Shown: in pieces, positions 60,718-64,000 of the stretch
Layout of the letters: each line of letters opens with the position of its first letter
How positions within the stretch are numbered: the stretch's first letter is position 1
Assembly: GCF_011745625.1 (NCBI RefSeq)
Contig: NW_027191496.1
Span: 1 to 64,000 of the forward strand
Origin: Cladosporium halotolerans
Taxonomy: Eukaryota
Length of the DNA stretch: 64,000 nucleotides
Reading direction: 5' to 3'
Notes under the pieces: model-generated
The model's database searches: none
The model's input: the letters and a program-made list of their open reading frames with translations, nothing else
Told to the model about the DNA's origin: nothing
Position numbers and translations under genes: made by a program

Positions 60718-62423
60718 ATGCCTCCTCAAGTGAGCCGGATGCACCCTTCGCACATGTCGAATCCATTCGTGCACCTCAATTCACAACACTCAATCCCTCA
60801 GAGCTCTTACCAAAGCCAATCATCACACCTACCCGGTAGCTTCAACTCTCAACCCAGCTTCGGTGGCACTGCCATCAATGGAGGAATATCGCCCTTCCCG
60901 TCATCATCAACATATGGCGCGAATGCTTTCACACCAGGCGCTAGCAGTTCGGTATTCAATGGCGGCACATTGAGCGGACAAGGCCAGGGTCTTGCGTCAG
61001 TCGCAGCCCAGCAAGGTTTCGCAAGAGGCGCGGCTATGCAAGAACACTCAGCACATCAACTTGAAGCAGCAAGCATGGATAACAAGTCCGGAGCGAATAG
61101 CAGGATAAGGCAGGTCTGGCGGCATAATCTTGAGCAAGAGATGGCCGTTCTAAGACAGCTTATCATCAAGTATCCTTACGTGTCGATGGTATGTTATCAC
61201 TCAAACTGCGATCGCAACAATGCGTCTTTGGAGCTTCAGACTGGTCGGCTTCATCCGCGGGCCCATGGGGCTTTTCTCGCAGATGCACGTTCAGCTACTA
61301 TCTGTCGCTATGGATAAACTTGCTACGCCCCTTTCCCAAATCTGGCATACCGGCTGACATTTGCATGCAGGACGCTGAATTTCCCGGAATTGTCGCCAGA
61401 CCGATCGGTAACTTTGCTGGTAGCAAGGCCGAGTATCACTATCAGACGCTACGCTGCAACGTAGACCTCCTGAAGCCCATTCAGCTTGGAATAACTGTCT
61501 GGACAGCCGAAGGCGATCTCCCGCCTCAACAGCCCGACCCTTCTCTTATCAGCCAGCTGAACGGAAAGTCGCCCTATCCCAACAACCTCATGTACTTGCC
61601 ATGCACCTGGGTCTTCAACTTCAAATTTAATCTTAACGAGGACATGTTCTCGGAGCCGTCGATCCAACTACTTGAGCAAAGCGGCGTTGAGTTCGACAAG
61701 AACCGCGAAATGGGCATCGACTTGGACGCTTTTGGCTCTCTTCTCACCACATCCGGCCTCGTCTTTTCTGATGAGGTGAACTGGCTGTCGTTTCATAGTG
61801 GATACGATTTCGGCTACCTCATCAAGCTTCTTACTGCGCAAGGCCTTCCTGAAGACCAAAGCGGATTCTTTGATGTTGTGGGCACATATTTCCCTAAACT
61901 TTGGGACATCAAGTTTCTCCTGCGTCATGCCCAGCGTATGAATGGTCAGGGCCGCCTTACACCGGAAAGCTCGCGCATCATTAGCGACCTCGGCCAACGC
62001 TCTGGACTGCAGGATCTCGCGGATATGCTGTCTTGCCATCGGGTTGGCCCAGCGCATACCGGCGGCTCGGACGCTTGGCTCACTGGATCCGTCTTCTGGG
62101 CCATGCGCAACCGTGTCTTCGGCGGCGATTTGCCTGACGATCTTGCCGACCAAATCTACGGCCTGCATGGCGTTCCTCTACCCGCCTCTCAACAATATCG
62201 CGAGGAGTTCTTCGCCGCGCAGGGTACTCCTCAGCAGCAAGCCAACGGCCTCACAGGCGTCGCCGCAAGCTTTGCCTCTGGCCACACTCCCAACAACCCT
62301 TCCACGCCAACTAGCAGTCACGCGGGACTCAATGCGACAACTCCCGGGCCTCACTTCGGACACAGCATGGGGGCCGGGAGTTTGGGTGCGGCGGGATTCG
62401 GCAACTTCCAATATAGTAAATAG
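60718..62423 (+). CDS. POP2: CCR4-NOT deadenylase subunit Caf1/Pop2; intron 61189-61370
   Basis: RIRQVWRHNL..YPYVSM/DAEFPG, YQTLRCNVDLLK, SFHSGYDFGY, HTGGSD (DEDD residues intact). Confidence 0.95.
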
Positions 62424-63015
62424 GGCGGTCATTATTGGACGGGTTAACGAGATACCCAAGGTCTGATTTCTTGCGGTGTGATAGCGTTCTGCAGCCGGTG
62501 GAGGCGTTTGGGTAAGCAGTCGGCAAGGCTAGCTAGTGGCTGTTTGATGGGTGTTGTACATGTATATTCGATCAACCATTCACGCAATCAGTTCTTGGAG
62601 CAGTCTCCTCACGAGATGATAGACTCAATTACTATAGGTTTTTTGATTGCAATTTTGACAGTGGGCTCATGATTGAAATGAATAATTCAAAAGGCCACCT
62701 CATGTAGACGTAACGTTGTTCGAGTTTCTTCGTCCTACTATTGACGCCCGTTTTAAAGACGTGGCCCGTGCGTGGCGAAAGCTTGAGAGCGGCTGCACGA
62801 CGCCAAATTCTGAGGTGACTGGTGTGATTACCTAGCCAATTGAGTCAATATATTTTTGCCCCATTCCACCACTATCCTGCAACCACTCCTTCAACGTGGC
62901 TGCCCGCGCCTTTAGACACTCTTTCTTTCTTCAAACCCGCAACTTCACTTCCTCAGCCCCCAGGTGGCGTGCCATTGCTCCGGTCCGGACGCGAAACACA
63001 GGAGGAACGATCAGC

Positions 63016-64000
63016 ATGGCGACAGATTACAAGACCCTCGCGGGTCAAGAATTCGACAGAGCAGCATTTGAGTCGCTCATGAAGCGCAAGAACTTCTACT
63101 GGCAATCATTTGAGCCCCATGGCCCGGTCAAGGGTCTCTTCGACTATGGCCACCCTCTCGCCACTCTTGAGGCTCAGTTTCTCACCATCTGGCGCGACCA
63201 CTTCGTCCGCAAGGAGCGCATGCAGGAGCTCAAGTGCGCAATGATCACACCTTACAACGTCTTCAAGACTTCTGGCCACGTGGACAAATTTGCCGACTTC
63301 ATGTGCAAGGATCCCAAGACTGGCGAGATTCTCCGTGCGGACCACTTGATCAAGGATGTACTGGAGGCTCGTCTCAAGTCTGACAAGGAGGCCCGCGGCG
63401 AAAAGGTCGAGGAAGCCGCTGAGGACCCTAAGAAGAAGAAGAAGCAGGCCAAGGCTACCAAGGGTGCCGTCAAGCTTGATGACGAGGTTCGCAAGCAGTA
63501 CGAATTCCTGCTCGCTACTCTGGACGACTACACTGGTGATGACATGGGTGAGCTCATTAAGAAGCACGACATCCGCAGCCCTATCACTGGCAACGAGGTC
63601 GAGCCTCCGGTCTCTGTCAACCTTATGTTCCAGACTCAGATTGGCGCTACCGGCAAGGAGCCTGCTTTCCTTCGCCCCGAGACTGCTCAGGGCCAGTTCC
63701 TTTCTTTCCAGCACTTGCTCGAATACAACGACGGTAAGATGCCATTCGCCTCTGCATCCATCGGTTACTCTTTCCGCAACGAGCTTTCCCCCCGCTCCGG
63801 TCTCCTGCGTGTTCGTGAGTTCCTGATGGCCGAGATTGAGCACTACGTCGATCCCGAGAGTGGCAAGCAGCACTCTGGCTTTAAGAAGGTGCGCGACCTG
63901 AAGCTGCCCCTCCTGTCTCGCCAGACACAGAGCGAGGGCGGCTCGGAGCCTACCGTCATTACCATCGGCGAGGCTGTCGACACCAAGCTCGTCGACAACG
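63016..64000 (+). CDS. GRS1: Glycyl-tRNA synthetase (eukaryotic alpha2 type), 3'-truncated by the window edge; probable upstream GTG start at 62896
   Basis: Absent from ORF track (no stop in window); GLFDYG, KTSGHVDKFAD, LRPETAQGQF, SFRNELSPRSGLLRVREFLMAEIEH. Confidence 0.95.
   Translation, partial: MATDYKTLAGQEFDRAAFESLMKRKNFYWQSFEPHGPVKGLFDYGHPLATLEAQFLTIWRDHFVRKERMQELKCAMITPYNVFKTSGHVDKFADFMCKDPKTGEILRADHLIKDVLEARLKSDKEARGEKVEEAAEDPKKKKKQAKATKGAVKLDDEVRKQYEFLLATLDDYTGDDMGELIKKHDIRSPITGNEVEPPVSVNLMFQTQIGATGKEPAFLRPETAQGQFLSFQHLLEYNDGKMPFASASIGYSFRNELSPRSGLLRVREFLMAEIEHYVDPESGKQHSGFKKVRDLKLPLLSRQTQSEGGSEPTVITIGEAVDTKLVDN

Follow-up and report, generated by a model that had tools for sequence, protein, structure and literature searches.

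A probable GUG start codon for a mitochondrial isoform of glycyl-tRNA synthetase in a Dothideomycete fungus

Here we report that a single glycyl-tRNA synthetase (GlyRS) gene very likely supplies two enzymes by leaky scanning, a mitochondrial form started at a conserved GUG 40 codons before the AUG, and a cytosolic form started at the AUG itself. The gene lies at the 3′ end of the window, by which we mean the whole stretch of 64,000 nucleotides analysed. A first-pass annotation of this DNA had proposed a GUG-started mitochondrial presequence resembling that of yeast GRS1, and the proposal gains support from homology of the extension to those of related fungi, conservation of the GTG and its context, an in-frame stop just before this codon in one relative, and the 5′ end of a cDNA. 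The features on which the argument turns, all on the + strand, are as follows.

62833..62835, +: in-frame TAG, the upstream limit of the open GlyRS frame, read from the sequence
62863, +: 5′ end of the GlyRS cDNA contig (run X1, with start label), a probable transcription start (A after CCC)
62863..62895, +: leader of 33 nt leading up to the GTG, without ATG; its final 20 nt are 80-95% identical in the relatives L001-L003
62896..62898, +: GUG at which the mitochondrial isoform is proposed to start, CAAC GTG GCT; kept in 5/5 (window, L001-L003, L006)
62896..63015, +: N-terminal extension of 40 codons, a candidate presequence; 7 Arg, 0 Asp/Glu, 22% Ser+Thr
62938..62955, +: RNFTSS, a conserved R-x-F-S/T-S/T-S/T motif and candidate processing site, from a motif scan of extensions
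62983..63003, +: VRTRNTG block, common to the ATG-started extensions of P0016, P0020, P0021, L004, L009 and L010
63016..63018, +: start of the cytosolic isoform and first AUG of the mRNA, context ATCAGC ATG GCG; the gene models of close relatives (P0001-P0015) begin here
63016..63999, +: GlyRS core, first 328 codons, assigned by similarity and domain matches; the gene continues past the window end

In the mechanism that we propose, the mRNA would start near 62863, and a minority of scanning ribosomes would initiate with Met-tRNAi at the GUG, which is weak as a start codon but optimal in its context (A at -3, G at +4). The 40 residues added in this way would act as a matrix-targeting presequence, probably processed between RNF and TSS, and would direct the mitochondrial enzyme. 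Most ribosomes would scan past the GUG and, finding no AUG on the way in any of the frames, initiate at the AUG at 63016 to make the cytosolic enzyme. The mitochondrial isoform would then probably be the minor one and the cytosolic isoform the major one. The strong-context GUG would serve the same purpose as the weak-context upstream AUG of other Pezizomycotina, which it would replace. The layout of the locus, its conservation, the homology of the extension and a transcript 5′ end are seen in the data, from which we infer GUG initiation, the isoform ratio, import and cleavage in this scheme.

The upstream frame and its conservation

Assignment of the gene itself is straightforward. The window's own full product (P0001, 662 aa) matches solved glycine--tRNA ligase chains (4kr2, 2pme and others) at E = 1.3e-186, the HGTP anticodon-binding domain (PF03129) with 70.7 bits, and the class II core (PF00587) with 27.6 bits, slightly below the cut-off of 29.3, while its relatives carry the name glycyl-tRNA synthetase in their sources. 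By these matches to structure, domains and relatives, the gene is a eukaryotic alpha2-type GlyRS of the GRS1/GARS1 kind. Among 284 candidates, 217 protein relatives were found at E ≤ 0.001, and the best 120 of these 217 are the listed relatives referred to below. The closest named GlyRS over the N-terminal region, among the matches listed, are those of Cryoendolithus antarcticus (91%) and Peltaster fructicola (89%), and as far as sequence similarity tells, the source organism is a Dothideomycete fungus.

Our reading of the DNA agrees with the first-pass annotation that the GlyRS frame 5′ of the ATG is open back to the TAG at 62833-62835 with no in-frame ATG, and that the GTG at 62896-62898 stands in a strong context, TTCAAC GTG GCT. 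An open frame alone is weak evidence, and we do not use it as an argument because a second frame (ORF 62840-63082) is open across the same region. No ATG occurs in any frame from 62863 to 63015. The bases CAAC GTG GCT match what we take to be the consensus context of filamentous fungi. A search of the leader fold (62863-63030) for a hairpin that could boost the GUG gave none (z = +1.26; 181 of 200 shuffles folding equally well or better).

Translation from the GTG gives (V/M)AARAFRHSFFLQTRNFTSSAPRWRAIAPVRTRNTGGTIS, the acid-free extension with an R-x-F-T-S-S motif that had been described earlier. Basic, hydroxylated, devoid of acidic residues and N-terminal, it has the composition looked for in presequences; the cytosolic N-terminus, by comparison, has 5 Asp/Glu in 40 residues. 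The best 11-residue hydrophobic moment does not discriminate as a presequence test, because the extension (0.60) and the cytosolic N-terminus (0.53) are nearly alike. More telling is the processing-like motif, searched as [RK]-x-[FLIYM]-[STAH]-[STA]-[STA], which was found in 28 of 39 distinct extensions versus 7% of shuffles of the window's own extension, and whose distance to the internal Met is exactly 26 residues in the window's clade, L004, L009 and L010. In form it is like the processing site with Arg at -3 or -2 that is typical of matrix presequences, R-x-F/Y/L followed by S/T/A.

Relatives of the gene were sought in metagenome contigs by a scan that gave 587 pattern matches, 533 of them confirmed, and the best 80 of these 533 loci were used. 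The upstream frame could be read in 71 of the 80, the remaining 9 having no N-terminus on their contig. Where the match begins at residue 1 (45 loci), 39 loci carry an upstream in-frame ATG, two (L035 and L048) are cut by the contig end, and four have a closed frame without ATG. These four, L001, L002 and L003 (94% identity) and L006 (88%), are the window's closest relatives among the best 80 of 533. All of them keep TTCA(A/T)C GTG GCT, including the A at -3 and the G at +4 (5/5 with the window), and their extensions are 40 or 41 codons long; from the GTG to the main ATG, all five are free of ATG in every frame. In L006 an in-frame TAA stands 3 codons before the GTG, and the extension of this relative can therefore hardly begin elsewhere.

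Identity between the window and the four relatives is 0.38-0.48 over the 120 nt before the GTG (gap runs of 2, 9-15 and 3 nt, not all of them multiples of three), 0.59-0.78 over the extension (a sole gap of 3 nt) and 0.82-0.97 over the first 120 nt of the core, which is gap-free, and similarity to the closest relatives collapses about 20 nt upstream of the GTG. Judged from these alignments, the persistence of the GTG, its context and the frame of 40-41 codons is more than chance.

Substitutions within the extension can be read in two ways. Among close relatives dN/dS is high (0.42-0.90), so that purifying selection appears weak, and variable sites have no clear third-position excess (19/18/25 by codon position), a pattern that would also suit an untranslated relic of a presequence, now a 5′ leader kept for RNA-level reasons, with mitochondrial GlyRS coming from another gene or from an internal signal. 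Such a relic is improbable, however, in view of what has been retained. As far out as L006, where synonymous sites are near saturation (pS 0.66-0.74) and dN/dS is 0.12-0.21, the frame is intact, and the GTG persists with its context, as do both blocks, R-x-F-S/T and RTRNTG; the sole indel in the extension is of 3 nt; decay would not preserve a basic and nearly acid-free composition (0-1 Asp/Glu in 5/5 clade members); and the leader lacks notable RNA structure. Presequences are known for fast evolution, and the moderate coding signal of the extension would fit a fast-evolving presequence constrained in composition, though this signal alone is no proof of translation. Stronger evidence of coding is that the start codon with its context, the frame and the composition have all been retained, and the processing-like motif counts as well.

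Transcript 5′ ends and other possible starts

Transcript evidence consists of contigs from four runs, of which X1 is on record as RNA-Seq cDNA and X3 and X9 are only presumed to be RNA. The X1 contig (2195 nt, 0 differences from the window) begins at 62863 and is preceded by 20 letters unmatched in the window, ending CAACGCAGAGTACGGGG, which close with the start label GTACGGG and one extra G. This G is non-genomic (62862 is C), a feature that we take to be typical of capped ends. According to the available portion of the Bookend paper (PMC9245221), the Smart-seq2 5′ start label is AAGCAGTGGTATCAACGCAGAGTACGGG, and the same primer followed by T's is the 3′ label. The contigs of X3 and X9 (2194 and 2256 nt) start at 62845 and 62851, and their length fits a whole GlyRS mRNA. 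All of these contigs begin past the in-frame TAG, 33-51 nt before the GTG. Because rare forms are lost from contigs, minor shorter or longer transcripts are possible, and the labelled start is that of one contig in one run. Not all transcription starts can lie downstream of 62896, because the labelled cDNA 5′ end at 62863 is 33 nt upstream of the GTG, and an objection that the first-pass annotation had foreseen is thereby removed.

With an mRNA start at 62863, the GUG at 62896 is the first conserved near-cognate codon. Others are present in the same frame (ATT at 62839, ATA at 62848, ATT at 62863), and the extension might be translated from one of these AUU/AUA codons on longer transcripts, such as the starts of the X3 and X9 contigs would allow, or from a near-cognate farther downstream. 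We consider this highly improbable. None of the three upstream codons is conserved, the aligned places differing in L001-L003, and L006 has its in-frame stop 3 codons before the GTG; the upstream candidates also sit in poor context at, or at most 18 nt from, observed 5′ ends, the ATT at 62863 being at the extreme end of the mRNA. In-frame near-cognates 3′ of the GTG all follow RNFTSS and would therefore yield no presequence. A frame of 12 codons, beginning at a CTG with A at -3 (62877, 14 nt into the cDNA), runs across the GTG to the TAG at 62913-62915; the CTG is absent in L001-L003 and is therefore probably functionless.

That an AUG in an unseen upstream exon, spliced onto the extension, provides a conventional start of the long form might be suggested by the short 5′ introns frequent in fungal genes and by the longer ATG-started extensions of relatives, but it is extremely improbable, with the adaptor attached directly to the labelled cDNA contig at 62863, no joint to an exon upstream of the extension in the contigs of the four runs, no conservation of sequence beyond about -20, and the gene models of 15 close relatives (P0001-P0015) beginning at the internal ATG. 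Read by eye, GTGACT...CCTAG (about 62815-62835) is too short to be an upstream intron. Holes in contig depth (X1, 62469-62803; X9, 62670-62803) are uninformative by themselves. Initiation at the GUG of an mRNA that begins near 62863 is thus the reading that we retain.

Three further observations were made in the contigs. In the X1 cDNA contig, 84 nt of GlyRS coding sequence at 63336-63419 (28 codons, in frame) are skipped, a segment covered unbroken by the listed contigs of X2, X3 and X9; the ends of the skip are TG..GC and not GT..AG, with the near-repeat TGCGGACC / TGAGGACC on either side. Jumping of the reverse transcriptase, a deletion in the strain or non-canonical splicing within the Lys-rich insertion could each account for it. 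In run X2, a contig from a relative (90-95% likeness) carries an additional A after 62913 and is one letter short at 62919, a paired +1/-1 change that restores the extension frame after two codons and may reflect coding constraint or an alignment artefact. Upstream on the same strand, the gene at 61191-62423 is a CAF1-family deadenylase (PF04857, E = 9.5e-15), whose X3 contig (3047 nt, depth 248) reaches 62858, while the X3 GlyRS contig (depth 95) begins at 62845; should X3 be RNA, the CAF1 mRNA at its 3′ end and the GlyRS mRNA at its 5′ end would overlap, leaving no untranscribed spacer for a GlyRS promoter.

The upstream start codon in related fungi

Long N-termini started by ATG were found in at least 9 of the 120 listed protein relatives; our anchor pattern matched 65 of the 120, and in 9 of these 65 the anchor lies at least 56 residues in. 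The extensions of P0016, P0019 (Salinomyces), P0020 and P0021 end in ...FSTS..R(F/A)QV.(V/I)RTR(N/V)(T/K)G....M and align with the window's NFTSSAPRWRAIAPVRTRNTGGTIS, which runs up to the internal M. P0021, from Pseudocercospora fuligena, is named “Glycine--tRNA ligase 1, mitochondrial” in its source. By this alignment, the window's 40-codon extension and the ATG-initiated N-termini that the same gene has in related fungi are homologous.

The 39 ATG-type loci (within L004-L077) each have one upstream in-frame ATG in weak context, with T at -3 in 34 of 39 and contexts that often read TA(T/C) ATG or TGA ATG. At the internal ATG, position -3 is a purine in 43 of 45 loci, one of the two exceptions being L077, where the match start is off by one codon. 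Between the two starts, 36 of the 39 have no ATG in any frame and 3 have one; because several loci are duplicates of each other, the counts for ATG-type loci are not independent. Read from these contexts, the leaky-scanning design is very uniform across Pezizomycotina metagenome contigs.

A tree of 47 rows was built after removal of 11 loci interrupted by a stop or intron ahead of residue 200, the duplicates L030, L031, L039, L045 and L058, the cut loci L035 and L048, and L077. The five GTG sequences form one clade (99/82), which groups with Peltaster and Cryoendolithus (100/98) and is nested inside ATG-using lineages. Among the loci analysed it is the only clade in which the upstream ATG has been lost, and in nearer relatives (L004, L007, L009 and L010) the ATG-started extension is 57-78 codons long. 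Its nested position points to a single replacement of an AUG in weak context by a GUG in optimal context, with the presequence shortened from 57-78 to 40 codons.

A more speculative idea, which we think unlikely but worth stating, is that this change from a weak AUG (U at -3) to a GUG in optimal context was a compensated, non-neutral switch, one that tied the ratio of mitochondrial to cytosolic GlyRS to the stringency of start-codon choice (eIF1/eIF5 balance, stress), since a change in stringency affects near-cognate starts more steeply than AUGs in weak context. If so, these fungi would have a stress-tunable supply of mitochondrial translation machinery.

Comparison with known systems

The gene models of the clade (P0001-P0015) start at the internal ATG and therefore miss the mitochondrial isoform, so that in annotation these fungi would appear to be without a mitochondrial GlyRS. 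In human, one gene (GARS1) has two in-frame AUGs, the longer, mitochondrial form carrying a presequence and the other being cytosolic. The gene described here would be alike in having two in-frame starts in one gene, with a core close to solved structures (2pme, 4kr2), and differs in that both human starts are AUG.

A closer counterpart is found in S. cerevisiae GRS1, in which, according to the available part of PMC2909995, mitochondrial GlyRS starts from a UUG, TTG(-23), and the cytosolic form from AUG1; a GTG substituted for the native TTG also supports mitochondrial function, and the level reached with non-AUG codons at this start is 10-30% of that with ATG. The enzyme is the same, and in both cases an in-frame upstream near-cognate adds, or here would add, a presequence while the first AUG gives the cytosolic form. 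The two differ in codon and length, with UUG and 23 codons in yeast and GUG and 40 codons in the present gene, which is known from sequence and cDNA contigs. Unlike in GRS1, the non-AUG state seen here is visibly derived from an AUG-started ancestor within the Dothideomycetes.

Our literature search, which covered sources outside subscription journals, found no paper on GUG-started GlyRS in Dothideomycetes, and a term search of the accessible text of Ivanov 2017 (PMC5487733) found nothing on presequences of aminoacyl-tRNA synthetases (aaRSs). The GUG-started GlyRS is very probably a known aaRS trick in a new fungal lineage, and overturns nothing known.

In light of the fungal aaRSs described in the available portion of Wallace et al. 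2020 (NAR, PMC7049704), both kinds of leader may be placed in existing classes. DualAUG genes have a weak-context upstream AUG (U at -3) preceding a presequence and a strong downstream AUG, the very design of our 39 ATG-type relatives with their T at -3 in 34 of 39. DualNCC genes (the GRS1/ALA1 type) are near-cognate variants, among them S. pombe GlyRS, Cryptococcus ArgRS (AUU) and LeuRS (ACG), and the window has sequence and transcript features of this class: an upstream near-cognate without in-frame AUG (shared with 4/4 closest relatives), a favourable context (5/5), an mRNA that covers the GTG, and no AUG in any frame between the starts. That one gene would serve both compartments has indirect support from the presequence found on the orthologous gene of relatives. 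The same portion of that paper names no Dothideomycete and no GUG-started GlyRS, and its supplementary tables may list further GlyRS cases. Exchanges between weak AUGs and near-cognates are described there as having happened several times in fungal aaRSs. The ATG-type and GTG-type leaders of one gene are a natural construct pair for studying the trade-off between codon identity and context. As far as the available text of Wallace et al. 2020 goes, the swap between a weak AUG and a strong near-cognate had been inferred only from distant species, and the set of loci described here offers a datable natural case of it.
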